Shown here in pieces: positions 4,885-63,405 of a DNA stretch of 64,000 nucleotides. The translations under genes and the position numbers were made by a program. Origin of the DNA: Bacteroidota bacterium (GTDB lineage: Bacteria > Bacteroidota > Bacteroidia > Chitinophagales > BACL12); NCBI GenBank assembly GCA_016706865.1, contig JADJIS010000003.1:466030-530029 (forward strand). The letters run 5' to 3'. The first letter of the stretch is position 1. The number at the start of each line of letters is the position of its first letter. A model generated the notes under the pieces. That model made no database searches. It was not told the DNA's origin and saw nothing but the letters and a program-made list of their open reading frames with translations.

Positions 4885-4912
4885 TATTTGTTTAAATATT
4901 TTATATTTGTTA

Positions 4913-4951
4913 GAAACCGGCAGATTTGTTTTGCCGGTTTCTATTTTTTTT
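4913..4951 (+). terminator. Intrinsic terminator after the DUF4389 gene
   Basis: GAAACCGGCA ... TGCCGGTTTC stem (4913-4941) followed by a T-run (4943-4951). Confidence 0.75.
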
Positions 4952-4955
4952 GGAG

Positions 4956-5414: not shown

Positions 5415-5460
5415 TTGAAATGTAGAAACAGCCGGAACCCGCCAGTTGGCGGACAGGCGC

Positions 5461-5944
5461 GGATGACGCTGATTGGGCGGAAAAAAAAGGATAAAAAAAG
5501 TTGATATAGAAGTATAAACAATAATAATATTACCCTAGTTAAATTAATTCGACACGTTTAAGTCCTGAAAGGACGACACATCTTGTAACCACGGACTTCA
5601 GTCCGTGCGAATTAAAAAAGGGAACACGGATGACGCTGATTGGGCGAAAAAAAAAGGATAAAAAAAGTTGTTATAGAAGTATAAACAATAATAATATTAC
5701 CCTAGTTAAATTAATTCGACACATTTAAGTCCTGAAAGGACGACACATCTTGTAACCACGGACTTCAGTCCGTGCGAATTAAAAAAGGGAACACGGATGA
5801 CGCTGATTGGGCGAAAAAAAAAGGATAAAAAAAGTTGTTATAGAAGTATAAACAATAATAATATTACCCTAGTTAAATTAATTCGACACGTTTAAGTCCT
5901 GAAAGGACGACACATCTTGTAACCACGGACTTCAGTCCGTGCGA
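5461..5944. repeat. Tandem repeat, 2.9 copies of a 167-bp unit
   Basis: GGATGACGCTGATTGGGCG recurs at 5461, 5628 and 5795 (period 167). Each unit carries the hairpins GTCC-TGAAA-GGAC and CACGGAC-TTCA-GTCCGTG and A-runs. Two more TTTA-loop hairpins follow at about 5987-6007 and 6023-6037. Confidence 0.9.
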
Positions 5945-6121
5945 GGAAAACTGTAAGCACATACTTTAGGGCATAGATGAATAACCCCCGGCTTTAGCCG
6001 GTGGGAAAAGACGTAATAATGATCGGGCTTTAGCCCAAACGTCAATCATCAATGATAAGATATTGTAAAAATCGAATGAGAAAACAAAACCCATTCTACA
6101 AAAATTACATCAGTAAAATTT

Positions 6122-7663: not shown

Positions 7664-7803
7664 AAAATTATTTATAAAATTAATTAATAATTAAGTTGCA
7701 GATCTTCCAACATCATTTTAAGAAAAACGGAATCCTCCTCAGGTTTCAAAATTCTGTTATATCCCGACGATTCTTTATATTCTCTTTTTACAGAATTTAT
7801 TTC

Positions 7804-10118: not shown

Positions 10119-10168
10119 TATTACCCGATTTGTATTTATTACAAAGTACTAAGGTAACAAATAGGGAC

Positions 10169-10199
10169 AAAAAAAGCCGGCAGATTGCGCTGCCGGCTT
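10169..10199 (-). terminator. Intrinsic terminator after the 10220..12088 gene
   Basis: GCCGGCAG-ATTGCG-CTGCCGGC (10176-10199), followed on the minus strand by a T7 run (A-run 10169-10175 on +). Confidence 0.8.
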
Positions 10200-10219
10200 C
10201 GTTAAACAAAATTTAAATA

Positions 10220-12088
10220 CTATTTTGTTATGAGTATTTTTTGTATGGATTGTTCAACTCCATTTGATACGGATATTAAATATAATCCAGATGATAATGA
10301 ATTTGTATTAATTATGATATTATTATCACCCTTAACTATTGATTTATTTATTAAAGGTAGAATTACTTTTCCAGTTATATCAAGAACTGAAATTACTGCA
10401 TCAAAACTTTCTGTTGCAATAACATTTGCATTAATAATATCAGTTGCAGGGTTAGGATAAATACTTATTGCATTAATACCTGTAAGGTCAGAAATTGCAA
10501 CAGAAAAATTAAGTTGCTGCTCCGAAACATTTACATCGGCACAAGTTCCTACTGCAGTTAATGCTACATTAAATATTCCAAGATCGGTATAGGTATACGT
10601 GGGGTTTGCATCAGTGCTGAAATCAAGATCAGATAATGGATCACCAAAATCCCATGTATAAGAAACTGCATTGGAGGAAGTATTTGCAAAGTTTACTGTA
10701 AGTCCTACATTGTCAAAAGTAAATGATGCAATAGCCGGTGCTATGGTTCCGGGAACTTCACCATAATTTGTATTTTGCGGATCCCAGTTTGCCCAACATG
10801 ATGTCCAATTCAATGTTCCGAATGCACCGCGATAAGCAACATTATTAAATCCGGCTAATTCGGGAGCAGCAAATGAAGCTCCTGTTAATAAAGGAGATCC
10901 AGCCATAGGAACACAATTTGGCGAGGTAACATTATATGCATCAGTTAGCATAAGGTCGCTGCTCAGATCATAAATTGTATTATTATAAGCAGGAGTATTA
11001 AACCATGCTGCAATGTCGAATGTACTTCCCACAGCTAATTCAAAATCATTATTATGACCTGCAATTATTGTGTTCTGAATTTTGAGTGTATTTGCTAAAG
11101 CGCTTGCTTCACATAATGCACCATCTATCATTATTCCACTTGGATAACCAACTATAACAGAATTAAAGATATCTGTAGATGTATTTCTGCGTAAATGTGC
11201 TCCGCGTTTATAATTAACATTAATGATATCACCTTCATTTTGAATTGCACCAATAACAGTGATATTACTGAAGGTAGGATTTGTTTGTGGTGAATTTGCG
11301 CTTCCTGTTGCATCATTATCACTTTCAAATCCATTTGAACCTGATACATCCGCAAAATTCGGGTCACGTTTCACTAAACCGAATTGAACTTTTCCGGAAA
11401 ATCCGAAATCCGTATCAAAATCATCGTCATAAGTATTGTGTGCAATTAAATAATTGGCATTAACTGTTCCGCCAAAAAATTCAAAGGCATCATCACCTGA
11501 GCGGCTCACCATAACATGATCTAATAAAGTTCCGTTACCAACACCTCCGCAAGTAAGGCCGTTGATCTCATTTCCCGGAACGAATGCAATACCAGGATAT
11601 TCAATTCGCACATATACCAGTGCTCCGGAATTATCAGATGCATTTGCACCACCATAAGAAGCATCGCCTTCCGGTGTATCAACTCCGCCTTCAATAACAG
11701 CAACACCTCCCGGAACGTTAATTGGTGCATCTCCTAAAATAATTAATCCACCCCAATCACCATAATTTCTGGTTCCTTCGGATTGATTACTTGTAAATAC
11801 GATCGGTTGATCCACAGTTCCATTTGCATAAATTTTTGAACCACGTGTAATAATTAAAGTACCTTTTGTATCCTTATCGCCACGTATAATGGTGCCTGGT
11901 TCTATATTTAAAGTTGCACCATCTTCCACGTATACGAATCCGTTTAAAATATAAACGGTATCATTCACGAGATTGCGTGTTACACCTGAAATTTCACCTG
12001 ATAAGGTGTGTGTTGGTAATTGTGCGTTTGTTAATGCTGTAATAAACAGCAAGGAGAAAATTGTTAATGTTAATTGCAGTTTTTTCAT
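10220..12088 (-). CDS. Secreted beta-helix-like protein with PKD domain and T9SS sorting domain; paralog of 15109..17481
   Basis: ATG 12088 (MKKLQLTLTIFSLLFITALTNAQ) lies 10 nt after the TonB-receptor stop, so the track extension to 12217 is rejected. It shares about 470 aa of near-colinear similarity with 15109..17481 (YGDWGG..ILG.APINVPGG...DDDFDTDFG...NGFESDNDATGS). PKD-like YTWDFGDP. C-terminal IYPNPATD. Confidence 0.85.
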   Translation of the reverse strand: MKKLQLTLTIFSLLFITALTNAQLPTHTLSGEISGVTRNLVNDTVYILNGFVYVEDGATLNIEPGTIIRGDKDTKGTLIITRGSKIYANGTVDQPIVFTSNQSEGTRNYGDWGGLIILGDAPINVPGGVAVIEGGVDTPEGDASYGGANASDNSGALVYVRIEYPGIAFVPGNEINGLTCGGVGNGTLLDHVMVSRSGDDAFEFFGGTVNANYLIAHNTYDDDFDTDFGFSGKVQFGLVKRDPNFADVSGSNGFESDNDATGSANSPQTNPTFSNITVIGAIQNEGDIINVNYKRGAHLRRNTSTDIFNSVIVGYPSGIMIDGALCEASALANTLKIQNTIIAGHNNDFELAVGSTFDIAAWFNTPAYNNTIYDLSSDLMLTDAYNVTSPNCVPMAGSPLLTGASFAAPELAGFNNVAYRGAFGTLNWTSCWANWDPQNTNYGEVPGTIAPAIASFTFDNVGLTVNFANTSSNAVSYTWDFGDPLSDLDFSTDANPTYTYTDLGIFNVALTAVGTCADVNVSEQQLNFSVAISDLTGINAISIYPNPATDIINANVIATESFDAVISVLDITGKVILPLINKSIVKGDNNIIINTNSLSSGLYLISVSNGVEQSIQKILITK

Positions 12089-14966: not shown

Positions 14967-15053
14967 GTTGTTTAATATTTACATGCAAAGAACTCGCTTT
15001 AATGTTACCTAATCTTTATTGTAACATTAGTTAAACATAAATCGAATGTAAAC

Positions 15054-15083
15054 AAAAAAGCCTCCCGAACGAATTCGGGAGGC
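15054..15083 (-). terminator. Intrinsic terminator after the 15109..17481 gene
   Basis: GCCTCCCGAA-CGAA-TTCGGGAGGC (15060-15083), with a T-run on the minus strand (A-run 15054-15059 on +). Confidence 0.8.
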
Positions 15084-15108
15084 TTACAATCATACTGCAA
15101 TTAACATT

Positions 15109-29775: not shown

Positions 29776-29843
29776 TTAATTCGAAGCAATTCGCTTCAAT
29801 GTTTCAAACTGCCCACTGCCCACTGCTCACTGTTGACTTGTTA
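29776..29843 (+). repeat. Hairpin element TAATTCGAAGCAATTCGCTTCAATGTTTCAAA plus CTGCCCA heptamer block
   Basis: GAAGC-AATTC-GCTTC hairpin, then CTGCCCA CTGCCCA CTGCTCA CTGTTGA CTTGTTA (29809-29843). Same family as 46116-46378. Confidence 0.8.
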
Positions 29844-30726: not shown

Positions 30727-30750
30727 ACATCCAATTTTTTTGGTGATGCG

Positions 30751-31268
30751 TGGTAAAAAATAATAACCACAAAGCACAATGGAACACACAAGGGACACAA
30801 AGTGTTATTTGTATTTATAGTGTTCTTTGTGGGTTTCCTTGTGTCCATTGTGGTAAAAAAAAATAACCACAAAGCGCACAATGGAACACACAAGGGACAC
30901 AAAGTGTTATTTGTATTCATAGTGTTCTTTGTGGGTTCCCTTGTGTCCTTGTGGTAAAAAAAATAACCACAAAGCGCACAATGGAACACACAATGGACAC
31001 AAAGTGTTATTTGTATTCATAGTGTTCTTTGTGGGTTTCCTTGTGTCCATTGTGGTAAAAAAAAATAACCACAAAGCGCACAATGGAACACACAAGGGAC
31101 ACAAAGTGTTATTTGTATTCATAGGGTTCTTTGTGGGTTCCCTTGTGTCCCTTGTGGTAAAAAAAAATAACCACAAAGAGCACAAGAGAACACACAAGGG
31201 ACACAAAGTGTTATTTGTATTCATAGTGTTCTTTGAGGGTTCCCTTGTGTCCCTTGTGGTAAAAAAAA
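30751..31268. repeat. Tandem array, 5 copies of an approximately 101-bp unit (long imperfect hairpin plus A8-9 run)
   Basis: TGGTAAAAAA recurs at 30751, 30851, 30952, 31053, 31155 and 31257. In each unit ACACAAGGGACACAAAG pairs with CTTTGTGGGTTCCCTTGTGT, and the outer ACCACAA pairs with TTGTGGT. Confidence 0.9.
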
Positions 31269-31530
31269 ATAACTCTATCGCATTTGAGCACACCGGTATC
31301 TTTTATTAAATTTGAGTTAGCACAATAATTTGGCACAAGATTTCGTATTTGTGTGTAATATGAATAAAAACCACGTTGCCGGATGTTTATAATACTGTAC
31401 ATCAGGCAATTACTTAACTAATAAGTTATACGATTATAGCCAATATCTCTACGCTTTTAGCTGTTTATTTGTATTTATAATTTAGGCAAGCTGAATCAAT
31501 ATTGTAAATTTATTTAAATAGATACTAATT

Positions 31531-32223
31531 ATGGTTTTATCATTCATTCTGCAGATACAAGACACAGCTGTGTCAACACTTACCACTCCCGCTGTTGAAC
31601 CAGTGGAAAAATTGAGAATATTTGAACTTCTTGCAAAGGGTGGTCCGGTAATGATACCGATCGCAATTTTGTTGGTGATCACAATTTATGTTTGGATATA
31701 TAAATTTATCACCATAAATGCACAATCAAAAATTGATAACAGATTAATTCCGCAGGTAAGAGATCAACTCGTTTTAGGAAATTTAAAGTCTGCAAAAGGA
31801 TATGTAGCAAATGTAAATACTTCCGTAGCCAGAGTTGTTGACACAGGTTTGGACATGGTTGGTAGTCCGATGAATGAAGTGGAATCCGGTTTGGAAACTG
31901 CTTCCAATATCGAAATTCTGGAAATGGAAAAACATATGGGTGTGTTGAGAATTGTTGCAGGTATAGCTCCCATGCTCGGATTTATAGGAACCATTGCCGG
32001 TGTTATCACTATCTTTTATGATATATCCACAACAAATGATATCAGTATCTCTGTAATCTCCGCAGGTTTATATCAGAAAATGATCACCAGCGGTTTCGGA
32101 TTGCTTACAGGTATTATCGCATATGGTGCATTTAATTTACTTACGATGAAAATTGAACGTTTTGCATTGAGATTGCAACGTGCAGCTTTCGATTTTATAC
32201 GTATCATTAATACTAAAGAATAA
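31531..32223 (+). CDS. exbB: MotA/TolQ/ExbB proton-channel family protein
   Basis: 230 aa with three TM helices and the conserved GIAPMLGFIGTIAGVI segment. It is followed by exbD with an overlapping start/stop. Confidence 0.9.
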   Translation: MVLSFILQIQDTAVSTLTTPAVEPVEKLRIFELLAKGGPVMIPIAILLVITIYVWIYKFITINAQSKIDNRLIPQVRDQLVLGNLKSAKGYVANVNTSVARVVDTGLDMVGSPMNEVESGLETASNIEILEMEKHMGVLRIVAGIAPMLGFIGTIAGVITIFYDISTTNDISISVISAGLYQKMITSGFGLLTGIIAYGAFNLLTMKIERFALRLQRAAFDFIRIINTKE

Positions 32224-32624
32224 TGAAAATAGGAAGAAAAAAACATTACGATCTCGAAGTGTTTTCATCAACGATGAACGATATCATGTTCTTCCTGATG
32301 TTATTCTTTTTGATCATTTCCACTTTGGCAAATCCCAATGTGATAAAAGTATTACTGCCGCAAAGCGGAACTACAGATACCTATAGCAAACAAGATGTAA
32401 CCCTCACCGTTAATGCTGCAAAAGAATATTTTATTGACGATCGCCAAGTGAGTTTCGACATGCTCGAAATGGAACTCAACAACGCAACAGCTAACTCTGC
32501 AGAAAAAGTAGTTGTACTTCGCGCAGATGCAACATTAACTATTCAGGATCTTGTGGATGTGCTTCAAATTGGAGCTAAGAATCATGTGAGGATTGTTATG
32601 GCTACGGATAAGAGTAATTTCTGA
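32223..32624 (+). CDS. exbD: Biopolymer transport protein ExbD/TolR
   Basis: 133 aa with an N-terminal TM (IMFFLMLFFLIISTL) and VVLRADATLTIQDLVDVL typical of ExbD. Confidence 0.88.
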   Translation: MKIGRKKHYDLEVFSSTMNDIMFFLMLFFLIISTLANPNVIKVLLPQSGTTDTYSKQDVTLTVNAAKEYFIDDRQVSFDMLEMELNNATANSAEKVVVLRADATLTIQDLVDVLQIGAKNHVRIVMATDKSNF

Positions 32625-32957
32625 GGGGAAATAGGAAGTAGGAAATAGGAAGTAGGACATAGGATTGACATAGGACATGGGAAATCGGACATAGGATTTG
32701 ATTTGATTTTAATTGAGAATTAATTTCTAATTGGAGATTTTTTTCAGGCCGTAAATTATGCCTCGGAGGAGTGAGGCTCTCGCTCTTCGCGAGGGTCTCA
32801 CTAAAGGTATAGAAAGCAGAAAGGACATGGGAAATCGGACATAGGATTTAATTTGATTTTAATTCAGAATTAATTTCTATTTGGAGATTTTTTTCAGGCC
32901 GTAAATTATTCATCGGAGGAGTGAGGCTCTCGCTCTTCGCGAGGGTCTCACTAAAGG
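32625..32957 (+). repeat. TAGGAAG/TAGGACA heptamer block followed by two 135-bp direct repeats, each with a 13-bp-stem hairpin
   Basis: The heptamers at 32625-32701 begin 1 nt after the exbD stop. Copies at 32673-32807 and 32823-32957 have a 150-bp period. Hairpins GTGAGGCTCTCGC-TCTTC-GCGAGGGTCTCAC lie at 32771-32801 and 32921-32951. Confidence 0.9.
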
Positions 32958-32997
32958 CATAACAATACAACATAGGGATAGAAAAAGACATGTCATA

Positions 32998-33215
32998 TCA
33001 AAATTTCGCCAGAAATTTAAACTCCTATTTTGGTATCAGGAATCAAGTATCAGGAAAACAAACTCAGTGATTTGAAAAAAAATCGAAGAAATTTCAACTC
33101 CTTTCTCATTTCTCATATTTTGGTATCAGGAATCAAGTATCAGGAAACACATAATAGTGTTTAGCAAAATTTCGCCAGAAATTTAATCTCCTTTCTCCTC
33201 TCTCCTCACTCCTTT
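32998..33215 (+). repeat. Three copies of the composite AAATTTCG-NN-AGAAATTT hairpin element
   Basis: Hairpins at 33001-33018, 33075-33094 (degenerate) and 33167-33184. GTATCAG heptamers lie at 33033-33060 and 33123-33150. CT-rich tails read AAACTCCT.../AATCTCCTTTCTCCTCTCTCC. Confidence 0.85.
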
Positions 33216-33292
33216 TTAAATTTGATCTAAATTACCGAAATTTGGTGAAAATTGACCAAACCCTCTTAACTATAACCTAAACCACACTACTC

Positions 33293-34210
33293 ATGAAATT
33301 TTCACTAAAATTTATTTGCATTATTTTTTTATTTTCTATTAATTTATTAGTGTATGGGCAAATAAAAGTTCATTATTATTCAAAATCAGTGTTTGCAGAA
33401 AACATTGAGACGTTAAAGAAAACTACTTTGGTTTTTGTGGTCACAGATAACTATAAAGATTCTTTAGATGTAATTGAAAAGGCCTTAGAAAAATCTTGGA
33501 CACTAACAAAGTACGAAGTGATCACATACGATGAGTTAAAATATTATGTGAATGAAGATGGATATTCTTACATGAAAATGCAAGGATTTCTTGCTACTCC
33601 CAAAATTTTATCAACTGTGTATTTTGAATTACAATTAAAAGTAGAAAACTCAGATAAGACTAAAATAACGTGGAAACCGATTGCTTACATGAACCTATAT
33701 ATTGATAGGACAAATAATACGGAAGGAATTGAAAAGGGAGAAGAATATCTTTATGAAATACAATATCATAATTATAATGCCGGTTTTTTAAAATTATTTG
33801 TGAAGACGATAAATGACTATATTCTTGCAGGAAAACCTATAGGCGAATTTGATACTGATATATCTATCCCTTCTGAGGTCGAAAAATTAAAAATGGATAC
33901 CTTATATATTCCGGACTACACATTGAAATTGTCTAAAAAATACGTAAGCGAAAGTAAATTTAAGGTCAGAAGTCACGAAGAATTTCTTGAGGATTATCCT
34001 TATGAGGCCACAATATTGAGCGCAGATGAGTTAGGTAATAAAATTTTAAATGGCTCTATTGACTATGCACTTATTTATACGAGTGATAGTGAATTAATTT
34101 CTTTTATGGTTTACAACGTTAAAACCGGTGAATTAATTTATGGAAAATTTTTAGAGTTTAAGGAAAATCTTAAATCGAAAGATCTTTTAGATATTTTTGA
34201 GGAAAATTAG
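33293..34210 (+). CDS. Hypothetical secreted protein
   Basis: 305-aa ORF with a signal peptide (MKFSLKFICIIFLFSINLLVYGQ). No recognised family. Confidence 0.7.
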   Translation: MKFSLKFICIIFLFSINLLVYGQIKVHYYSKSVFAENIETLKKTTLVFVVTDNYKDSLDVIEKALEKSWTLTKYEVITYDELKYYVNEDGYSYMKMQGFLATPKILSTVYFELQLKVENSDKTKITWKPIAYMNLYIDRTNNTEGIEKGEEYLYEIQYHNYNAGFLKLFVKTINDYILAGKPIGEFDTDISIPSEVEKLKMDTLYIPDYTLKLSKKYVSESKFKVRSHEEFLEDYPYEATILSADELGNKILNGSIDYALIYTSDSELISFMVYNVKTGELIYGKFLEFKENLKSKDLLDIFEEN

Positions 34211-34345
34211 AAGTAGGACATAGGACCTAGGACATAGGACCTAGGACCTAGAACATGACAAGGACATGACAAGGACATGACAAGGACATGACAAGGACAG
34301 AAAAGAGTGGGGTAAATTTCGCAAGAAATTTAAACTTCTTTTCCA
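34208..34345 (+). repeat. AGGACMT heptamers, 4 x 11-mer CATGACAAGGA, then AAATTTC-GCAA-GAAATTT hairpin element
   Basis: The heptamers at 34208-34256 start with the TAG stop itself. The 11-mer x4 lies at 34254-34297. The hairpin lies at 34314-34331 with tail AAACTTCTTTTCC. Confidence 0.88.
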
Positions 34346-34398
34346 ATATTCCTGCCTCTGAGTAGTAAGACATACACTTTAAATTATTCTACTTAAGC

Positions 34399-36543
34399 TT
34401 ATTGCTTCACAAATTTTTGCGACCATGAATTCATTCCATCTTCTATTTTAATTATATAAATACCACTTCCAACATTTTGCAAATCGATAATGAAACTGTT
34501 TTCAGATGTAATTATTGTTTGCAGAATTTGACCTATCGCATCGGTTAAATAAATTGATTTTTCGGTAGAGAAATCTGTTTCGATCGCGATGTAATTAAAT
34601 GCAGGATTTGGGTATATTGAAAAAGTATTTTCTACTGTATTGTTAGCTTCTCTGCATGGCACACTCACAGTAATTGTATTTGAATTTTTGAAACAACCGG
34701 TAGCTATTTTTGTTACACGGCATTTATAATTTCCGGTGGTAGTGGCTATATAGTTTGTTGATGTTGCACCGGATATTACTGATGCACCTTTGTACCATTG
34801 ATAGCTGCTTGCTCCTACAGGAACCTCGGTTAAGGTTACACTTCCTCCTGCACAAAAGGTAGTTGCACCCGTTGCGGTTATAGATGCACCGGGGTTTTTA
34901 TTTACAATTACTGGAATTAAAGTTGAAGTTGCTGTGCCACATATACTTGTTGTTTCACATGTATAATCCCCTTTTTTAGTAACTGTATACGAGGTACCGG
35001 TTGCACCTGCAATATTTACTCCGTTCTTTTTCCACTGGAGAGATGTGCCAGAATGTATTGCAGTTAAAACAACAGAACCTCCCTGACAAAACGTTGTAGC
35101 TCCGCCGGCAGAAATGGAAATGGTTAACACAACTCCATCATCAATTATTCCATTGCAATCATCATCCAAAGAATTACATGTTTCCGGAAAAGGTGTGCAA
35201 GCAGGTCCAACCAGTTTTACAACCCAATAATCACTACCACCTAAGTTTGCTTCGGTTTTATCACCGGAAATTCCGGATTGTGAGTATCCCCCGAGAATAT
35301 ATCCGCTATCAGTGGTTTGTTGGAGGGTAATCAGATAATCATAATGACTCCCTCCAATGGTATTCTGCCATTCGATGGCACCAATGCTGTTTATTTTCAC
35401 TACCCAATAATCATTAGCACCCAACAATGTTTCAGTTTTATCACCGGAAATACCAGAAAAGGAGTATCCCCCCATAATATATCCACCATCGGTGGTTTGT
35501 TCGATGGATATCAGAAAATCATTATTGTTCCCACCAATGGTATTTTGCCATTCGATTGCTCCGCTGCCGTTGAGTTTCACTACCCAATAATCATAATCAC
35601 CCAAGGAAGCTTCGGTTTTATCCCCGGAAATACCAGACCCAGAGTATCCCCCCAGAATATAACCGCCGTCGGTGGTTTGTTGAATGGAAAACAGCAAATC
35701 ATCACTGCTCCCCCCAATAGTATTCTGCCATTCGATTGTACCGCTGCTGTTGAGTTTGACTACCCAATAATCGGAAATACCACCCAAAAATGCTTCGGTT
35801 TTATCACCAGAAATTCCGGAATTAGAGTATCCACCAAGTATATATCCGCCATCGGTGGTTTCTTGTATAGGAAAAAGGAAATCATCACCGCTTCCCCCAA
35901 TTGTATTCTGCCATTCGATTGCGCCGATACTGTTTAATTTCACTACCCAATAATCATCAACACCCAACGATGCTTCGGTTTTATCCCCTGAATTACCGGA
36001 AGTGGAATATCCCCCCAGTATATATCCGCCATCTGTGGTTTGTCGGATTGAACGCAATTGATCATCATGACTACCTCCAATGGTATTCTGCCATTCGATC
36101 GTGCCGCTGCTATTTAGTTTCACTACCCAATAATCACCCAAACCCACTGAACCTTCGGTTTTATCGACCGAAATACCAGAATAGGAATATCCCCCTATTA
36201 TATATCCGCCATCGGTGGTTTGTTGGATGGTAGCCAGATAATCTCCAGCTCCTCCGCCTATAGTATTCTGCCACTCAATAGTGCCGCTACTGTTAAGTTT
36301 CACTACCCAATAATCATAACTACCTGATAAGAGTTCGGTTTTGTCACCGGAAATACCGGAGCTGGAGAATCCACCTAGTATATATCCGCCATCGGTGGTT
36401 TGTTGTAAAGACCGCAGATAATCAAAATTACTCCCTCCAATAGTATTCTGCCATTCGATTGCAGGTGCCTGTGCAAATAAGTAATTAGTAATAACTAAGA
36501 AGAAGGAAAAAATCAGCGGCGATATTAATTTCAGTTTATTCAT
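34399..36543 (-). CDS. Secreted repeat (propeller-like) protein with Cys-rich MopE-like motif, Ig-like domains and T9SS sorting domain
   Basis: 714 aa. Eight to nine repeats of about 47 aa (IEWQNTIGGS..D.L.SIQQTTDGGYILGGYS.SGISGDKTE...DYWVVKLNS.G). CNSLDDDCNGIIDDG. C-terminal IYPNPAFNYIAIE...GIYIIKI. Confidence 0.88.
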   Translation of the reverse strand: MNKLKLISPLIFSFFLVITNYLFAQAPAIEWQNTIGGSNFDYLRSLQQTTDGGYILGGFSSSGISGDKTELLSGSYDYWVVKLNSSGTIEWQNTIGGGAGDYLATIQQTTDGGYIIGGYSYSGISVDKTEGSVGLGDYWVVKLNSSGTIEWQNTIGGSHDDQLRSIRQTTDGGYILGGYSTSGNSGDKTEASLGVDDYWVVKLNSIGAIEWQNTIGGSGDDFLFPIQETTDGGYILGGYSNSGISGDKTEAFLGGISDYWVVKLNSSGTIEWQNTIGGSSDDLLFSIQQTTDGGYILGGYSGSGISGDKTEASLGDYDYWVVKLNGSGAIEWQNTIGGNNNDFLISIEQTTDGGYIMGGYSFSGISGDKTETLLGANDYWVVKINSIGAIEWQNTIGGSHYDYLITLQQTTDSGYILGGYSQSGISGDKTEANLGGSDYWVVKLVGPACTPFPETCNSLDDDCNGIIDDGVVLTISISAGGATTFCQGGSVVLTAIHSGTSLQWKKNGVNIAGATGTSYTVTKKGDYTCETTSICGTATSTLIPVIVNKNPGASITATGATTFCAGGSVTLTEVPVGASSYQWYKGASVISGATSTNYIATTTGNYKCRVTKIATGCFKNSNTITVSVPCREANNTVENTFSIYPNPAFNYIAIETDFSTEKSIYLTDAIGQILQTIITSENSFIIDLQNVGSGIYIIKIEDGMNSWSQKFVKQ

Positions 36544-36791
36544 GTGTTTTATTTTTTAGGTGGGAATATTTATTATTTAATAAATTTTTGACATATTCGT
36601 TATCATTAATGTTTATTTAAATATAAAACATGCAGATGCGAAATTGAATTTTATAATGCACTTCGGTTTAAAGACTGGATTTTAGACAAATATCGTTGTT
36701 TTTAAATTCCTGTGTAACTTTTTGATCATTCGTAGGTTAGCATAATATACTATTGAACATTCTTCACCCAATTTTCCCCTAACTTTACACC

Positions 36792-38060
36792 ATGTTATTC
36801 AACACAATTCCACTCGCCGAACGCCTTCGCCCCAAAAACCTCGATGAATTTATTGGGCAGCAGCATTTAGTGGGGGAGGGACAGGTTTTGCGGAGGATGA
36901 TACAAAGCGGAAAATTGGTTTCCATGATATTCTGGGGACCACCGGGAGTTGGAAAAACCACTCTCGCCAATATTATAGCAAGATCGGCAAACCTTCCGTT
37001 TTTTTCGCTGAGTGCAGTTTCTTCGGGGGTTAAGGATGTGAGGGAAGTAATTGAAAAAGGAGAACGTGGCGGAAAAATAGTTTTATTTATTGATGAGATA
37101 CATCGTTTTAATAAAGCACAACAGGATTCGTTGTTGGGTGCAGTGGAAAAAGGGACCATTTTATTAATTGGTGCCACTACGGAAAATCCTTCCTTTGAAG
37201 TTATTTCCGCATTATTGTCGAGAAGTCAGGTATTTGTATTAAAAGAATTTACCAAAGAAGACTTACAGCAATTAATTAAACGCGCAATTACGGAAGATGA
37301 AATATTATCCAAACGAAAAATAATTATTGAAGAAGAAGAGGCGCTTTTACAATTAAGTGGAGGTGATGCAAGAAAATTATTAAACCTGCTCGAATTAATT
37401 GAAGAATCTGTAGCCGAAGAAAAATTAATTATTACCAATGATCTCGTAAAACAAATTGCACAGAAAAAACTTGTTTTATACGATAAGAATGGCGAACAAC
37501 ATTACGATATCATTTCCGCATTTATAAAAAGTATGCGCGGAAGTGATCCTAATGCTGCGATATATTACATGGTGCGCATGATAGAAGGAGGGGAGGACCC
37601 GAAATTTATAGCCCGACGCATGTTGGTGCTTGCAAGTGAGGATATTGGAAATGCAAATCCCAACGCTTTATTATTAGCAACAAGTTGTTTTCAGGCAGTC
37701 ACCATGTTAGGTTATCCCGAATGCCGACTAACCCTCGCACAAACCGTTATTTATCTGGCAACCTCACCAAAAAGTAATGCCTCTTATGTCGCTTTACAAA
37801 ATGCCACCAATATTGTAAGAGAAAAAGGTGATCTGCAAATTCCTTTACCCATAAGAAATGCTCCCACCAAATTAATGAAGGAATTAAATTACGGTAAAGA
37901 ATATAAATACGCCCACGACTACGAAAATAATTTCACCGAAATGGAATTTCTCCCCGAAGAAATAAAAGGCACAAAAATTTTCGAACCCGGAAATAATGCG
38001 AAGGAGAATGAGATGAGGAGGTTTTTGAAAGAGCGCTGGGGGGATAAGTACGGTTATTGA
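36792..38060 (+). CDS. rarA: Replication-associated recombination protein A (MgsA/RarA AAA+ ATPase)
   Basis: 422 aa. Walker A GPPGVGKTTLA, Walker B LFIDEIHRFNK, and a conserved MgsA C-terminal region (HYDIISAFIKSMRGSDPNAAIYY). Confidence 0.93.
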   Translation: MLFNTIPLAERLRPKNLDEFIGQQHLVGEGQVLRRMIQSGKLVSMIFWGPPGVGKTTLANIIARSANLPFFSLSAVSSGVKDVREVIEKGERGGKIVLFIDEIHRFNKAQQDSLLGAVEKGTILLIGATTENPSFEVISALLSRSQVFVLKEFTKEDLQQLIKRAITEDEILSKRKIIIEEEEALLQLSGGDARKLLNLLELIEESVAEEKLIITNDLVKQIAQKKLVLYDKNGEQHYDIISAFIKSMRGSDPNAAIYYMVRMIEGGEDPKFIARRMLVLASEDIGNANPNALLLATSCFQAVTMLGYPECRLTLAQTVIYLATSPKSNASYVALQNATNIVREKGDLQIPLPIRNAPTKLMKELNYGKEYKYAHDYENNFTEMEFLPEEIKGTKIFEPGNNAKENEMRRFLKERWGDKYGY

Positions 38061-38358
38061 GACACGGGATATGGGACACGGGATATAGGACACGGGACAC
38101 GGGACACGGGACTGGACATAGGACATTGGAAATGTGACATAGGAATCCAAAATTGTATCGGGTATAATGTATCAGGAAAGCAATTGGTGGGATTTGCAAA
38201 AATTTCGCAAGAAATTTAAACTCCTTTCTTGTGAGTATCAAGTATCAGGTATCATGTATCAGGAAAACAAACGGTGGGATCAAATCAAATTTCGAAGAAA
38301 TTTAAACTCCTTTCTCCTTTCTCCTCTTTCCTTTCTCCTCTCTGCTCTCTCCTCTCTC
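38061..38358 (+). repeat. GACACGG/CATAGGA heptamers, two composite AAATTTCG..AGAAATTT hairpin elements, CCTYTCT heptamers
   Basis: The heptamers at 38061-38144 (12 units) start on the first nt after the rarA stop. Hairpins lie at 38200-38217 (GCAA loop) and 38287-38303. GTATC-type heptamers lie at 38233-38267. The CT block at 38307-38358 abuts the stop of the minus-strand gene. Confidence 0.9.
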
Positions 38359-39901
38359 ATTTTTGTTTTTTATTTATTATTTGTATATCATTATCTTCCA
38401 CAATATATTCCGGAAGTTTTTGACTGTCGAAGCTTTCAAATGCTCCAAGTTTGTAACCCATGTTTTTAAGTGAGTCGATAGTATTTTCTGGAGGAAACCA
38501 GGCATAAACATTTTTAGAGGAATAAAACATTGCATCTATTTCACACATCGATTTGCAATTAAAAATAATATCAACATCCGGGGCGATATTGTCGATCTCT
38601 CTATAAATTGCAGTGTTCCATAACTTCAAGTCCTTTTCGTTTTCAGTATACATGCTTTTGCCTTTAACATGGGAGAATTTGATGTCTCTAAATGAAATGA
38701 TATATGCAGAAATTCCAAATAAGGTGACAAATAAAAATGCATACTTAATATAATTTTGTTTAAAAAAATCTGAGATATAATCAATCACTACAATGAGTCC
38801 CTTGCTGAAGATCAAAATTATTAGTGGAGCAATATAGTATACATAGGAATATGATTTGGACTTCGCAATGCTAAAAACAACATATACGATTATTATGCAA
38901 GTAATAAATGAAATCCATAATGTTTTATTTTGCCCCTTTCTGAAAATGAATATTAACCCTAGAATAAGTAATAGTATGGAAAATTGTCCATACTGCTGTA
39001 AATATAAATTTAAATAATGATACCATTCTCCGGAATGTCCTTCCAAAACTTCCGTGAAATGTCTTTTATTAAATTCGTATTCATAAGCACTTTCTAATGG
39101 CCATTTTTTCCAAACGTAAATCTGCCACGGCATAAATGTCAGGAAACTAAGCAATAATGCACCTGTAATTTTAAGATATTCTATATTTTTATGTATAATT
39201 AATCTATCGAGAAGCGAATGAATTCCCCAAACACCAAATATGAACAATCCCGGAAGCCATTTATTTAATATCGCAATTCCGGAAAATACGCCAATTCCCA
39301 CAACATAAATAATACTCCCTTGTTTCAAATATTTTAAATAACACCAAATACTTAAAGTGGTATAGAACATAAATGATATATCATTATGATCCATGCCAAT
39401 TACTCCGGCCGTTTGTTCTAACTGGTAAAATGAAAAACAAAACATCAGAGCGGCAGCAAATCCCACCTTTTTATTAAATAAATAGGTCCCCATGCTTAAA
39501 ATAAGAATAGTAGCGAGCGCTCCCATGATTACACTAGGCAACCTTACGGCAAATTCAGTTGGACCTAGTAATTTAATACTCGCAGCAATTTGCCATAAAA
39601 AGAAAGGTTGTTTGTGTACCCAAATGTGATTTCCTGTCCACGAAGTATAATCATATGGTAAGACCGGTTCAGTTCTTAACATGGGTTTAAATGGATGTTC
39701 AGCCATGTTTTTACCAACAAGAGCATGATATCTTTCGTCATAATTATGTAAATAATTATCCTGCTCCGCAATAAACACTCTAATAAGAAAGGCACTTGTA
39801 AAAAGAAATAAATACATACCTGCTTTTATGTTTTTCAACATAAAAATAAATGCGATCATGCCTGATAAAAATGATAAATATATTAAATAGTCCTTTTCCA
39901 T
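38357..39901 (-). CDS. Glycosyltransferase family 39 / ArnT-like polytopic membrane protein
   Basis: 514 aa with more than 10 TM helices. The N-terminal loop DERYHALVGKNMAEHPFKPML is typical of PMT/ArnT-type glycosyltransferases. Confidence 0.75.
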   Translation of the reverse strand: MEKDYLIYLSFLSGMIAFIFMLKNIKAGMYLFLFTSAFLIRVFIAEQDNYLHNYDERYHALVGKNMAEHPFKPMLRTEPVLPYDYTSWTGNHIWVHKQPFFLWQIAASIKLLGPTEFAVRLPSVIMGALATILILSMGTYLFNKKVGFAAALMFCFSFYQLEQTAGVIGMDHNDISFMFYTTLSIWCYLKYLKQGSIIYVVGIGVFSGIAILNKWLPGLFIFGVWGIHSLLDRLIIHKNIEYLKITGALLLSFLTFMPWQIYVWKKWPLESAYEYEFNKRHFTEVLEGHSGEWYHYLNLYLQQYGQFSILLLILGLIFIFRKGQNKTLWISFITCIIIVYVVFSIAKSKSYSYVYYIAPLIILIFSKGLIVVIDYISDFFKQNYIKYAFLFVTLFGISAYIISFRDIKFSHVKGKSMYTENEKDLKLWNTAIYREIDNIAPDVDIIFNCKSMCEIDAMFYSSKNVYAWFPPENTIDSLKNMGYKLGAFESFDSQKLPEYIVEDNDIQIINKKQK

Positions 39902-42398: not shown

Positions 42399-42408
42399 GG
42401 GGGAAAGG

Positions 42409-42494
42409 GGAAATAGGAAGTAGGAAGTAGGAAATAGGACTTACTTATCTTAGGTCCTACGTCTTCCTACTTCCTACTTCCTACTTCCTATTTC
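42409..42494. repeat. Long inverted repeat built from TAGGAAG heptamers (about 31-bp arms)
   Basis: Left arm GAAATAGGAAGTAGGAAGTAGGAAATAGGAC (42409-42440), right arm GTCCTACGTCTTCCTACTTCCTACTTCCTACTTCCTATTTC (42454-42494). It starts 11 nt after the GH16 stop. Confidence 0.9.
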
Positions 42495-42531
42495 ACATTT
42501 TTCCTTACCTTTAACCTAAATTCATAATCAA

Positions 42532-45773: not shown

Positions 45774-46000
45774 AGATATGATATAGGAAATAGGACATAG
45801 GACATATGACATAGGACACAGAACATAGGAAAACAAAGGGTGGAGTTTGCAATAATACTTACTCCTTGAAGCTCTCGCTCGCATCGAGGTTTTCACTAAT
45901 GAAAATGTCCATCACCAGTAAGGCTCTCGCCATTAGGGGGTCTCACTAATGATAATCTCCATCACCAGTGAGGCTCTCGCTCCCGCCGAGGTCTCTGCTT
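45774..46000 (+). repeat. ACATAGG heptamer block followed by three tandem AGGCTCTCGC...GAGGTCTCAC hairpins (period about 50 bp)
   Basis: Heptamers at 45774-45836. Hairpins at 45867-45897, 45918-45947 and 45968-45996, the same family as 32771-32801. Further hairpins are TTCGC-TAAGAGA-GCGAA (about 46024-46040) and CTTTAGTTTA-CAAGTA-TAAACTAAAG (about 46067-46092). Confidence 0.85.
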
Positions 46001-46115
46001 TGTCTTTTACCTTTATTGAGACCTTCGCTAAGAGAGCGAAAGCCTCAAAACTCCCGCCGGATGGGACTTTAGTTTACAAGTATAAACTAAAGGAAGTTAT
46101 ATATAAAGACAAATT

Positions 46116-46378
46116 ATAATTCGAAGCAATTTGCTTCAATATTACAAACTGCGACTGCGACGGGCCCCCTGCCCCAAAGGGGAGTTAAGTTTTTCAAAAA
46201 TTAAAAATATAATTTCGAAGCGAAAATCTCCAATGTTACAAACTGCCCACTGCCCACTGTTGACTGTTTACTGCCCCAAAGGGGAGTTAAGTTTTTCAAA
46301 AATTAAAAATATAATTTCGAAGCGAAAATCTCCAATGTTACACACTGCCCACTGCCCACTGCTCACTACCCCTACTAC
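46116..46378 (+). repeat. About 2.7 tandem copies (93-102 bp) of the element ATAATTYCGAAGC...CAATRTTACAAA + CTGCCCA heptamers + CCCC-AAA-GGGG hairpin
   Basis: Unit starts at 46116, 46209 and 46311. CTGCCCA blocks at 46243-46277 and 46345-46372. CCCCAAAGGGG at about 46172-46182 and 46274-46284. Confidence 0.88.
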
Positions 46379-60985: not shown

Positions 60986-61037
60986 GCTCACATTGGTGCT
61001 TTGAATTCCTTTTTGAAAATTTTGCTAACCTGATGCT

Positions 61038-61191
61038 CAGAACCCAGAACTCAGAACCCAGAACTCAGAACCCAGAACTCAGAACCCAGAACTCAGAACC
61101 CAGAACTCAGAACCCAGAACTCAGAACCCAGAACTCAGAACCCAGAACTCAGAACCCAGAACTCAGAACCCAGAACTCAGAACCCAGAACT
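61038..61191 (+). repeat. Perfect tandem array (CAGAACC CAGAACT) x 11, i.e. 22 heptamers in 154 bp
   Basis: Counted directly. There are no mismatches and the two units alternate strictly. The array ends 19 bp before ATG 61210. Confidence 0.97.
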
Positions 61192-61194
61192 CAT

Positions 61195-61202
61195 TACCTT
61201 TG
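61195..61202 (+). promoter_or_regulatory. Candidate Bacteroidota -7 promoter box (TAnnTTTG)
   Basis: TACCTTTG lies 7 nt upstream of ATG 61210, which would imply a leaderless or very short-leader mRNA. No TTG -33 element is visible inside the repeat. Confidence 0.3.
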
Positions 61203-61209
61203 CAATCCA

Positions 61210-63405
61210 ATGACCTCCGTCTTTTTATTCACCCCACCCTTCACCCAACTCAATACCCCTTATCCTGGTACCGTTTATTTAAAAGGCTTTTTAAATACAC
61301 GCAATATTTCCTGTTATCAGGCGGATCTTGGAATTGAAGTTACAGACACCATTTTTTCAAAACAGGGTTTGATCAATTTATTTGAAGCAGTAAATACAAC
61401 GGCCGAAAACATATCAGAAAATTCCTCAAGAATTATTGCTCTTAAAGAAGATTATATCAATACAATTGATCATGTAATGCATTTTTTGCGTGGGAAAAAT
61501 CCTTCTTTAGCTCATGTAATTTGTTTAGGTGATTTTTTGCCTGAAGCATCGCGATTCGAACAGATTGAAGATCTCGAATGGGCTTTCGGAACCATGGGAA
61601 AACAAGACCAGGCGAAATATCTTTCAACTATGTATCTGGAAGATATTTCAGACCTTATCCGTGAATGCGTGGATCCCTTTTTTGGATTTAGCAGGTACGC
61701 AGAGAAACTTGGTAGATCGGCAAACAGTTTCGATGAACTATACGAGTTATTGCAGGGCCCAAATACCTATGTTGACGGCATTTTACTAAACATCTTAAAA
61801 CAAAATTTGGACAATGTCCAAATTTCTATAGTTGGTATTTCCGTTCCTTTTCCGGGAAATTTATATTCCTCATTCCGATGCGCGCAATTCATCAAAAAAC
61901 ATTACCCGCATATAAAAATTATTATGGGAGGAGGATTTCCAAACACCGAATTGCGATCTCTTTCCGACCCGCGTGTTTTTGAATTTTATGATTTTATTTG
62001 TCTGGATGACGGCGAAGCACCTCTTGAAAATATAATTAAATTTTCGAAAGGGGAGATACAACTAAACGAATTAAAAAGAACATTTACCTTAATTGATGGA
62101 GTGGTTACCTATATTAATAATCCGGCAACTAAAGATTATAAACAAGGGGAGATAGGTACACCGGATTACAGTGATCTGTTTCTGGATAAATATATTTCGG
62201 CAATTGAGATCATGAATCCCATGCACAGTTTATGGAGCGATGGACGCTGGAATAAGCTTACCATGGCGCATGGATGTTATTGGGGTAAATGTACTTTCTG
62301 TGATATTTCATTGGATTATATAAAACTCTACGAACCTGTTGCAGCATCGCTTTTAGCCGATAGAGTAGAGGAACTAATTAAACAAACAGGACAATCCGGA
62401 TTTCATTTCGTAGATGAAGCAGCACCACCGGCATTAATGCGTGCATTTGCCATTGAAATTATTCGACGCAACATTAAAATAAGTTGGTGGACGAATATTC
62501 GTTTCGAAAAAAGTTTTACAAAAGACCTTTGTATTTTATTAAAAGCAAGTGGATGTATTGCAGTGTCGGGAGGATTGGAAGTTGCCTCCGACAGATTATT
62601 GGAATTAATTCAGAAAGGTGTGACTGTCGCACAAGTTGCAAAGGTTAATCGCAATTTTACGGAAGCGGGAATTATGGTACATGCATATTTAATGTACGGT
62701 TTTCCCACTCAAACTACGCAGGAAACTATTGATGCACTTGAAATGGTGCGACAACTATTTTCTGCGGGAATAATGCAATCGGGGTTTTGGCATCAGTTCG
62801 CAATGACTGCCCACAGTCCTGTCGGATTAGATCCATCATTTTTCAAAGTAAAAAAAATAAATGATACTATTGGAACCTTTGCTAATAACGACATCGAATT
62901 TATAGATGATACAAGAACCGACCATGAAAAATTCAGTTTCGGATTAAAAAAATCGTTGCTTAATTACATGCATGGAATTGGGTTGGAAGATGATCTTCAA
63001 AATTGGTTTGATTTTAAAATACCGAAAACTTTAATTCCACCTAATTATATTAAAAGAGTTTTAACGGAAAAGGATTTTAAGGATATTAATCCCTCAACAA
63101 AAATTATCTGGTTGGGAAATCCGCCTGTAATGGAAAATGTATCATCAACAAAAAAACCATCCGATATTGAAATGGTCAGACTTTTGTTTGTTGATAAAAC
63201 AACAGAATTCAATATTTTATTACAAAAAGATCATGGATTGTGGCTGACTAAAGTTTTGCCAAAACTTTCCGTAAATAATTCCTTAATAATGACATTAAAA
63301 GAACTACAGGAAACTTATACTACCGCTGGCCTGACTCAATTTGAACAATTCATTAACAGCAAGCCTATGGCGGGTTTGTTCGATAATGGATTATTACTCC
63401 TATAA
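61210..63405 (+). CDS. B12-binding-domain radical SAM protein
   Basis: ATG 61210 (MTSVFLFTPPFTQLNTPYPG). Cys cluster MAHGCYWGKCTFCD. An N-terminal Rossmann-like B12-binding-type region. The track start 61033 translates the heptamer array. Confidence 0.88.
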   Translation: MTSVFLFTPPFTQLNTPYPGTVYLKGFLNTRNISCYQADLGIEVTDTIFSKQGLINLFEAVNTTAENISENSSRIIALKEDYINTIDHVMHFLRGKNPSLAHVICLGDFLPEASRFEQIEDLEWAFGTMGKQDQAKYLSTMYLEDISDLIRECVDPFFGFSRYAEKLGRSANSFDELYELLQGPNTYVDGILLNILKQNLDNVQISIVGISVPFPGNLYSSFRCAQFIKKHYPHIKIIMGGGFPNTELRSLSDPRVFEFYDFICLDDGEAPLENIIKFSKGEIQLNELKRTFTLIDGVVTYINNPATKDYKQGEIGTPDYSDLFLDKYISAIEIMNPMHSLWSDGRWNKLTMAHGCYWGKCTFCDISLDYIKLYEPVAASLLADRVEELIKQTGQSGFHFVDEAAPPALMRAFAIEIIRRNIKISWWTNIRFEKSFTKDLCILLKASGCIAVSGGLEVASDRLLELIQKGVTVAQVAKVNRNFTEAGIMVHAYLMYGFPTQTTQETIDALEMVRQLFSAGIMQSGFWHQFAMTAHSPVGLDPSFFKVKKINDTIGTFANNDIEFIDDTRTDHEKFSFGLKKSLLNYMHGIGLEDDLQNWFDFKIPKTLIPPNYIKRVLTEKDFKDINPSTKIIWLGNPPVMENVSSTKKPSDIEMVRLLFVDKTTEFNILLQKDHGLWLTKVLPKLSVNNSLIMTLKELQETYTTAGLTQFEQFINSKPMAGLFDNGLLLL

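Follow-up and report, generated by a model that had tools for sequence, protein, structure and literature searches.

The window analyzed here is a 64,000-nucleotide stretch of contig JADJIS010000003.1 from a Bacteroidota bacterium; between positions 33001 and 38303 it carries six small hairpins of the form AAATTTC-loop-GAAATTT, set among tandem heptamers. On balance, we lean towards reading these hairpins as copies of a lineage-specific interspersed mosaic repeat, comparable to bacterial interspersed mosaic elements (BIME), BOX elements and short tandemly repeated repetitive sequences (STRR), which occupies terminator-poor gaps at gene 3' ends. The family is high-copy, fast-changing and intergenic, is found in a few uncultured Chitinophagales-like bacteria, and resembles bacterial mosaic repeats more than it does a strictly strand-specific RNA signal. 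Whole units of ~83-97 bp are gained and lost in tandem, the unit number varying by strain and sister species, and at a given gene end whole cassettes are replaced by different families of heptamers plus hairpin. A role in forming 3' ends is possible.

A high-copy composite family with a constant anchor

The hairpin pattern AAATTTCNNNNGAAATTT is present exactly at 33001, 33167, 34314 and 38200, compared with a mean of 0.30 occurrences in dinucleotide-preserving shuffles, none of 100 of which reached four. A fifth copy has a 3-nt loop (AAATTTC-GAA-GAAATTT, 38287-38303), and a sixth, AAAAAAAATCGAAGAAATTT at 33075-33094, is degenerate; the loops are GCCA and GCAA, twice each, and GAA once. A preliminary description of this DNA had placed six hairpins with these loops at these positions, all on the + strand and each behind a + strand gene, and it is correct in both respects, the genes being exbD (32223-32624), an open reading frame (ORF) at 33293-34210, and rarA (36792-38060). 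Three gaps hold the copies: the tandem gap between exbD and ORF 33293, the convergent gap between ORF 33293-34210 and a minus-strand gene for a type IX secretion system (T9SS) cargo protein, and the convergent gap between rarA and a minus-strand PMT_2 glycosyltransferase gene. Since two of the three are convergent, orientation is uninformative there, leaving the exbD-ORF 33293 gap as the only informative one.

A 3' tail, GAAATTTAAACTCCTTTCTCC with at most three mismatches, is present at four of the six copies (0.03 expected); heptamers do follow the hairpin, as had been proposed, but they are better written TYWCTCC than CCTYTCT. Upstream, the 5' box GGAAAACAAACGGTGGGAT is exact at 38262 and carries three mismatches at 38175, the boxes before the 33075 and 33167 copies are far more diverged, and the copies at 33001 and 34314 have neither box nor GTATCAG heptamers in front.

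A pattern scan of one genome per species, covering 185,579 species, matched 85 stretches, all but one of them in two metagenome-assembled genomes (MAGs), Chitinophagales MAG_MBR_AS.25 (JBGAWP01; MAG A) and Bacteroidota GFS_13507 (JAYSYX01; MAG B). The family sample used below comprises 0.66 Mb from three related genomes, namely the window and, as 8-kb blocks around copies, the two MAGs. It holds 123 exact copies, window included, and 134-145 under relaxed patterns, all intergenic apart from doubtful ORF overlaps, which bears out the claim of a repeated composite element. The window genome is neither MAG; only repeats align to them, at 75-90% identity, and direct synteny was discarded as a basis of comparison because the alignments are limited to repeats and paralogous T9SS repeat proteins. 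No copy was found in 2.9 million viral contigs, and a phage or viral origin was rejected on that basis. At the gathering score, the sole Rfam match within the window is a tRNA, and an E-value search of 32500-38500 returned one chance-level match elsewhere; with no Rfam match at the element, a known RNA family was set aside.

The constant part of the element is an anchor consisting of AAATTTC-G(N)NA-GAAATTT, a perfect, A/T-rich palindrome of 7 bp, followed by AAACTCC and then by TYWCTCC heptamers, of which a copy has most often three and at most 13; a T-run follows the heptamers in 53 of 134 copies. The region 5' of the hairpin is variable and is made up of a GGAAAACAAAcGGTGGGAT box, purine-rich heptamer arrays of several families and sometimes a nested GC-rich hairpin. 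In the short form (63 copies), the box GGAAAACAAAcGGTGGGATnnnnnA stands behind purine-rich heptamers (GTATCAG, GGACATA, GGGACGC/GGGAATC or GGAAATA), while the long form (32 copies) has an extra module of ~60 nt with the hairpin GTGAGGCTTTCGC-TCTTA-GCGAAGGTCTCAC between box and hairpin, in a few cases inverted. Unrelated sequence or heptamers lie directly 5' of the hairpin in 28 copies, and all three classes carry the identical 3' anchor. Both MAGs have the module of the window's 150-bp repeat embedded between the box and the AAATTTC hairpin, in some cases inverted. When the loop was unconstrained (n = 134), GCAA was found 91 times, GAA 12, GCCA 10, GCAG 5, GTCA 5 and others 11; GNRA loops make up 72% (GCAA 91, GAAA 2, GTAA 2, GCGA 1). 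Tandem clusters are exclusively direct, with periods of 69-97 bp that cluster at 82-87 bp.

Gene 3' ends, terminators and turnover between strains

Gene calls on the 85 loci and the window yielded 347 gaps with a minimum length of 40 nt. Among these, the element is present in 22 of 59 convergent ones (37%), 34 of 201 tandem ones (17%) and 4 of 87 divergent ones (4.6%), an odds ratio of 12 for convergent against divergent gaps (p = 7e-7). The proposed tie to gene 3' ends is thus upheld. Strict strand specificity is not: in tandem gaps, 23 copies are co-oriented with the genes and 11 anti-oriented (p = 0.058, with some orthologues of the two MAGs counted twice). The preliminary description had named random orientation without any 3'-end association as one outcome that would speak against it; the association is strong, and the orientation bias is only about 2:1.

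In co-oriented cases, the arrays start a median of 9 nt past the stop codon, and in convergent gaps the pyrimidine array reaches the stop codon of the other gene. Read along transcription, the first 40 nt of co-oriented copies are 66% purine with a GC skew of +0.29, and the last 40 nt are 34% purine with a skew of -0.54; anti-oriented copies begin with 69% purine and a skew of +0.55 and continue with 38% purine and a skew of -0.20. The composite is pseudo-symmetric because the reverse complement of its pyrimidine array is a GGA-rich purine array; with a variable purine 5' side and a pyrimidine 3' side, both strands are therefore alike in composition, and a reader coming from either direction meets a purine array first, then the small palindrome and lastly a pyrimidine array.

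A terminator scan found no terminator-like site in the three element-bearing gaps of the window, and classic terminators follow other window genes (for example at 4885-4955, 10119-10224 and 14967-15108). Across all loci, a strict terminator pattern is present at 5 of 76 gene ends with the element in the gap versus 39 of the 243 gene ends whose gap lacks it (odds ratio 0.37, p = 0.037). In a relative whose RarA is 79% identical and which has no heptamer arrays (locus L184, 3908-4000), exbD is followed by AAATGCCGGAAATCATTTTCGGCATTTTTG, a textbook intrinsic terminator, where the window has 668 bp of repeats. As for promoters, there is no excess of sigma-70-like sites, and a by-eye check within the unit found no Bacteroidetes TAnnTTTG / TTTG pair at proper spacing.

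Comparison of loci with and without the element, suggested earlier as a check, revealed both presence/absence and unit-number differences at orthologous gaps. Reciprocal-best matching pairs 95 proteins between the two MAGs, at a median identity of 90.6%. Among their 57 orthologous gaps, seven carry the element in both, on the same strand and with unit counts such as 1 vs 2, 3 vs 1 and 2 vs 1, and three carry it in MAG A only, MAG B having other heptamer-plus-hairpin modules there. One such replacement consists of GGCAGTG/ACTGCCC arrays with a TTCGAAGC hairpin, a family also present in the window at 29777 and 46117-46367. Insertions and deletions between the MAGs are confined to the 5' side of the hairpin, without any difference in the anchor or in the unique flank that lies past it.

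Strains of the window species were represented by ten independent assemblies, with a RarA (P0004) ~100% identical to that of the window and shared DNA 93-98% identical. The seven that span the rarA-PMT_2 gap (L166-L172) each have three units with loops GCAT, GCAT and GAA, and the window has two; the covering assemblies have one hairpin unit in the exbD gap, and the window has three. The 150-bp repeat is present in two or three copies across strains. The element is absent from the examined relatives with a RarA no more than 97% identical. At 97% identity (L176-L178), exbD adjoins rarA with a purine array and no hairpin element, and a different repeat of ~100 bp follows rarA; at 81-82% there are other heptamer families after rarA, and at 78-79% no arrays. 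A metagenome scan with RarA returned only relatives of at most 66% identity, all without the element, and the close relatives were obtained through a protein search instead.

The genes between the exbD gap and rarA also differ among strains with near-identical RarA (window 33222-36768 against L166 2059-5976). The other strains have an 84-aa ORF, a 786-aa TonB-dependent-receptor-like protein and a DUF4249 protein there; in the window, the interval encodes a secreted protein of 305 aa and a T9SS cargo protein of 714 aa, and in more distant relatives phhA directly adjoins rarA. This interval is a gene-turnover hot spot lined by repeats. The repeats were considered as the exact boundaries of the variable segment and rejected, as homology breaks at ~33476 and 36768, away from the hairpins.

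Competing explanations and known repeat systems

In the mosaic-repeat reading that we favor, the element would act at the DNA level, as a modular, minisatellite-like sequence colonizing the space just after genes. Local change would proceed by replication slippage or unequal recombination between heptamers and units, and spread to new gene ends by a copy mechanism or by recombination through shared arrays. Copies might persist in 3'-end gaps devoid of canonical terminators, where they would be harmless, and may help to end or insulate transcription from both directions. Several points weigh against this reading. The sampled loci contain no terminal inverted repeats, target-site duplications, multi-copy ORFs or transposases that would account for spread between loci. 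The 25-nt anchor is ~93% invariant across three species, unlike neutral junk, which implies a sequence-specific partner or function. A genuine role at the RNA level could explain the 2:1 co-orientation and the depletion of terminators just as well. Lastly, all data come from metagenome assemblies, which are prone to miscounting tandem units, yet the seven assemblies that span the rarA-PMT_2 gap agree on three; gene calls were simple longest-ORF calls. The explanations considered below, an RNA 3'-untranslated region (UTR), transposition by an unseen enzyme and a protein-binding palindrome, are not mutually exclusive with the favored one or with each other.

A strand-specific 3'-UTR RNA module, as the preliminary description had proposed, would comprise a hairpin with a GNRA-type cap and a CU-rich tail, transcribed with the upstream gene and acting in mRNA stability, processing or termination, the C-rich, G-poor tail serving for instance as a Rho loading site. 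The strong 3'-end association, arrays beginning at stop codons, the 23 to 11 co-orientation in tandem gaps, the GNRA loops, the scarcity of canonical terminators alongside the element (with none in its three window gaps) and a pyrimidine tail that is nearly G-free would all suit such a module; one third of the informative gaps, however, hold an antisense element, 28% of loops are non-GNRA, and no Rfam family matches. Among copies located by the tail alone, ~93% have perfect stems and the remainder single uncompensated mismatches; the inner helix is invariant in 51 aligned short-form copies, and compensatory changes number zero in both sets. With one G-C pair in seven, the hairpin has a predicted energy of -4.3 kcal/mol (+ strand) or -3.7 kcal/mol (- strand), and the stem is followed by AAACUCC rather than by the U-run of an intrinsic terminator. 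The 64-nt unit folds no better than shuffles (z = +0.13). An outer helix, GGGAUUU/AAACUCC, around the hairpin was rejected, with only 70% of cells pairing and zero compensatory changes, as was long-range pairing of the purine and pyrimidine arrays: the minimum free energy fold has periodic 4-bp helices, yet folding of the 321-nt rarA gap offers no advantage over shuffles (z = +1.5 for the + strand and 0.0 for the - strand). Evidence for conserved structure is thus none beyond the palindrome itself, and evidence for RNA structure is weak. Of the proposed module, the link to gene 3' ends survives, and strict orientation and structural support do not; we consider it unlikely to be the explanation.

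Mobility was the other earlier proposal. A small non-autonomous element, similar to miniature inverted-repeat transposable elements (MITEs), to doublets of repetitive extragenic palindromic (REP) sequences (REPINs) or to cyanobacterial small dispersed repeats (SDR), would depend on a transposase or reverse transcriptase whose gene lies elsewhere and which recognizes the hairpin in single-stranded DNA or in RNA; heptamer arrays or terminator regions would be its insertion targets. We find this doubtful, even though high copy number, a very uniform sequence across three species, presence/absence differences at orthologous gaps, modules nested in either orientation at a fixed point beside the hairpin, and a distribution limited to one lineage all agree with it. 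Neither terminal inverted repeats nor target duplications were seen in 123 aligned copies, the strand-specific insertion once envisaged is not borne out, clusters are always direct tandems without inverted doublets, the 372 kb sampled from MAG A contain no repeated ORFs, and the viral contigs contain no copies. The "empty" orthologous sites, moreover, hold other repeat families, so that excision or insertion junctions are unreadable. A double-stranded DNA site appears less probable still. The palindrome AAATTTC-N4-GAAATTT, with its phased 7-bp arrays on the flanks, would be bound by a putative dimeric protein, for example a topoisomerase or nucleoid protein, at places where supercoils accumulate from converging transcription; E. 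coli BIMEs are reported to bind gyrase, which is the basis of the analogy. Conservation of sequence rather than pairing, half-sites that are both perfect in ~93% of copies, the top occupancy in convergent gaps and the pseudo-symmetry of the composite are what such a site would predict. Its binding protein is itself hypothetical, however, and the spacer is strongly asymmetric and conserved (GCAA 68%), which common descent can explain and a symmetric site does not need.

Several defined categories were also tried and rejected. A linked transposase would be expected among multi-copy ORFs, of which the sampled loci have none. Against a MITE, each unit is bounded by GTATCAG-type heptamers at one end and by CTCC heptamers with a T-run at the other, which are not inverted copies, and no flank is duplicated. 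A CRISPR array does not fit because the segments between hairpins are the repeated box and heptamers themselves and the neighboring genes are exbBD, rarA, the glycosyltransferase gene and the T9SS cargo gene. An integron attC site or cassette is contradicted by the mixed orientation, by the homology breaks away from the hairpins and by the lack of an integrase among the neighbors.

Compared with the REP/BIME sequences of E. coli, the element is alike in being a short extragenic high-copy palindrome (18 nt, 134-145 copies in 0.66 Mb) that joins other motifs in mosaic clusters, in being placed behind genes and between convergent ones and hardly ever in promoter gaps, and in varying in copy number between strains. 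Unlike them, its clusters are direct tandems rather than alternating, with no REP doublets and no gap holding copies on both strands; the palindrome is A/T-rich and perfect, lacks a GTAG-type head and is flanked by heptamer arrays; and no gene for a REP-associated tyrosine transposase (RAYT) was found in the sampled 8-kb blocks. The BOX element of Streptococcus pneumoniae, boxA - boxB(n) - boxC, is likewise a modular intergenic repeat with a variable number of internal modules, located near gene ends and with any effect on neighboring genes being secondary, but its modules and organism are different and it folds into a stable long structure, which the composite does not. The SDR of Nostoc, in work by Elhai and co-workers from 2008, are reportedly hairpins embedded in STRR heptamer arrays. 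Tiny hairpin repeats inside tandem heptamer arrays, nested insertions, a single coherent lineage and no known enzyme are common to both; the phylum is different, the sequences are unrelated, SDR hairpins are said to show compensatory mutations whereas the stem here is invariant, and the hairpin here has a fixed polar partner (AAACTCC and pyrimidine heptamers) and a preference for gene 3' ends. The likeness is architectural only; compensatory change is lacking in our family. The Nostoc SDR paper is mentioned in PMC5861425.

Heptamer arrays have been documented without explanation in cyanobacteria, Beggiatoaceae, Xanthomonas and a handful of Bacteroidetes (PMC4679880, PMC4692102), among them TAACTGA repeats in Beggiatoaceae, cyanobacteria and five Bacteroidetes (PMC4679880), GGGAATC in Xanthomonas and GGGGAYT in Nostoc (PMC4692102). 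Similar to the arrays of the window, these are intergenic and fall into many families, some right after stop codons and often as converging inverted pairs, and they are missing at the same sites in related species. The published repeats are plain arrays, whereas here the arrays are organized around a hairpin anchor into 83-97-bp units with a purine-to-pyrimidine switch. The element is comparable to intrinsic terminators in standing just after stop codons, in having a hairpin with a T-run somewhere downstream and in being distributed in a way complementary to canonical terminators; its T-run, if present, is 20-60 nt away beyond the pyrimidine array, and the element, with its single G-C pair, fails the terminator scan. 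Our literature searches found no description of such a family for Chitinophagales. The element fails the tests for REPIN doublets, MITE, terminator, CRISPR, attC and Rfam and is best filed with interspersed mosaic and heptamer repeats. One bolder proposal, to which we give little credence, is that the cassettes are the product of a lineage-specific Bacteroidota system that builds and exchanges purine-array/palindrome/pyrimidine-array units at gene ends, where they would act as orientation-independent, factor-dependent stops or insulators that replace hairpin-plus-U terminators at many genes, in parallel to the cyanobacterial heptamer/SDR repeats.

Repeat landscape of the window and wider meaning

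Table 1. Copies of the AAATTTC hairpin element and adjoining repeats in the window.
Feature	Position	Strand	Description
Purine-rich heptamer array GGAAATA/GGAAGTA/GGACATA	32625-32697	+	Begins directly after the exbD stop codon
Two 150-bp tandem repeats	32659-32958	+	Each with GC-rich hairpin GTGAGGCTCTCGC-TCTTC-GCGAGGGTCTCAC (32771-32801, 32921-32951)
Copy 1	33001-33025	+	Hairpin AAATTTC-GCCA-GAAATTT (33001-33018) and AAACTCC
Copy 2, full 90-bp unit	33033-33116	+	GTATCAG-type heptamers 33033-33054; diverged box 33054-33074; degenerate hairpin 33075-33094; tail CAACTCCTTTCTCATTTCTCAT 33095-33116
Copy 3, full unit	33123-33217	+	Heptamers 33123-33144; diverged box 33144-33166; hairpin AAATTTC-GCCA-GAAATTT 33167-33184
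Copy 3, 3' part	33185-33217	+	AATCTCC, TYWCTCC heptamers and T5
Purine-rich arrays	34214-34299	+	TAGGACA heptamers, then ACATGACAAGG 11-mers; begin at the stop codon of ORF 33293-34210
Copy 4	34314-34344	+	Hairpin AAATTTC-GCAA-GAAATTT (34314-34331) and decayed tail AAACTTCTTTTCC; convergent gap
Purine/G-rich heptamer array, GACACGG/GACATGG type	38061-38144	+	G3N4 spacing; begins at the rarA stop codon
Copy 5, full unit	38155-38234	+	GTATCGG/GTATAAT/GTATCAG heptamers 38155-38176; box GAAAGCAATTGGTGGGATTTGCAA 38176-38199; GCAA-loop hairpin 38200-38217; tail AAACTCCTTTCTTGTGA 38218-38234
Copy 6, full unit	38235-38358	+	Four GTATCAN heptamers 38235-38263; consensus box GAAAACAAACGGTGGGATCAAATC 38263-38286; hairpin AAATTTC-GAA-GAAATTT 38287-38303
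Copy 6, pyrimidine array	38304-38358	+	55 nt; extends into the stop codon of PMT_2, a convergent gene (38357-39901, - strand)
Orphan 5' box GGAAAACAAAGGGTGGAGT	45828-45846	+	Without AAATTTC hairpin; GTGAGG-type hairpin modules follow

The AAATTTC hairpin element is one family within a landscape of heptamer repeats. The window has 35.6% G+C and encodes Por_Secre_tail (T9SS) proteins, and its intergenic DNA is dense in tandem heptamers (GGAAATA, TAGGACA, GACACGG, CTCCTCT, AACTCAG, ACTGCCC, AATGAGT and others). Tandem Repeats Finder detected arrays of period 7, 14 and 21 at 32627-32696, 33187-33213, 34214-34289, 38061-38144, 38234-38261 and 38307-38358, with many more window-wide; such head-to-tail 7-nt units in intergenic DNA are the mark of heptamer repeats of the long simple sequence repeat (LSSR)/STRR type. 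Longer tandem repeats of 102, 150 and 167 bp also lie in the gaps, the 102-bp repeat in five copies (30750-31273) and the 167-bp repeat in three (5460-5960); the 102-bp repeat recurs in two MAG loci, L050 and L065. The GC-rich hairpin of the 150-bp repeat, whose module also occurs at 45870-46080, is strongly strand-asymmetric, its energy being -25.1 kcal/mol for the + strand but -17.0 kcal/mol for the - strand. Two G.U wobbles on the + strand turn into C.A mismatches on the - strand, which hints at an RNA-level or single-strand role for this hairpin.

In a second composite family (29777-29832, 46117-46152, 46211-46265 and 46313-46367), CAAACTGCC follows a small TTCGAAGC...GCTTC-type hairpin and is itself followed by CACTGCC heptamers, a layout that parallels that of the AAATTTC hairpin with AAACTCC and CTCC heptamers. 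Between two + strand genes at 42399-42531, a GGAAATA/GGAAGTA array is followed by its exact reverse complement (CTTCCTA), forming a long perfect hairpin, and then by a T-run; it looks like a terminator made of heptamers. Eleven perfect copies (100% matches) of a 14-mer, CTCAGAACCCAGAA, span 61036-61193 at the predicted start of ORF 61033-63405, so that the predicted start codon is probably wrong.

The tail CTCCTTTCT of the element (33019-33030, 38218-38229 and 38304-38315) appears to resemble the 3' end of Bacteroidetes 16S rRNA (anti-Shine-Dalgarno); in anti-oriented copies, its complement would presumably place arrays rich in GGAG and similar to Shine-Dalgarno sequences just past stop codons. 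The window itself has no 16S gene. The purine arrays after rarA (38061-38112) have G3 runs at 4-nt spacing and hence G-quadruplex potential on the coding strand, and MAG B loci (such as L023 and L030) use GGGAATC/GGGACGC units; the GGGAATC heptamer is described as quadruplex-forming in Xanthomonas (PMC4692102). Spurious ORFs of 100-160 aa run through the repeat arrays and overlap the PMT_2 gene, at 7294-7776 in strain assembly L166 (160 aa) and at 38167-38469 (+) and 37933-38241 (-) in the window.

Taken together, the AAATTTC family cleanly exemplifies, with abundant data, a class of repeats that is poorly understood; it is no new category, and its function is unproven. For these genomes, spurious ORFs generated by repeat arrays are an annotation hazard in gene calling, and the arrays can break or collapse metagenome assemblies; differences in unit number could in turn help to tell strains of these wastewater and freshwater bacteria apart. 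For decades, there has been no explanation for the heptamer arrays and tiny hairpin repeats of cyanobacteria, Xanthomonas and a few Bacteroidetes, and the AAATTTC family provides a second test case. Its distant phylum, fixed anchor, 3'-end preference and strain-level turnover make hypotheses on the origin of such repeats, and on a possible part of theirs in ending transcription, directly testable.

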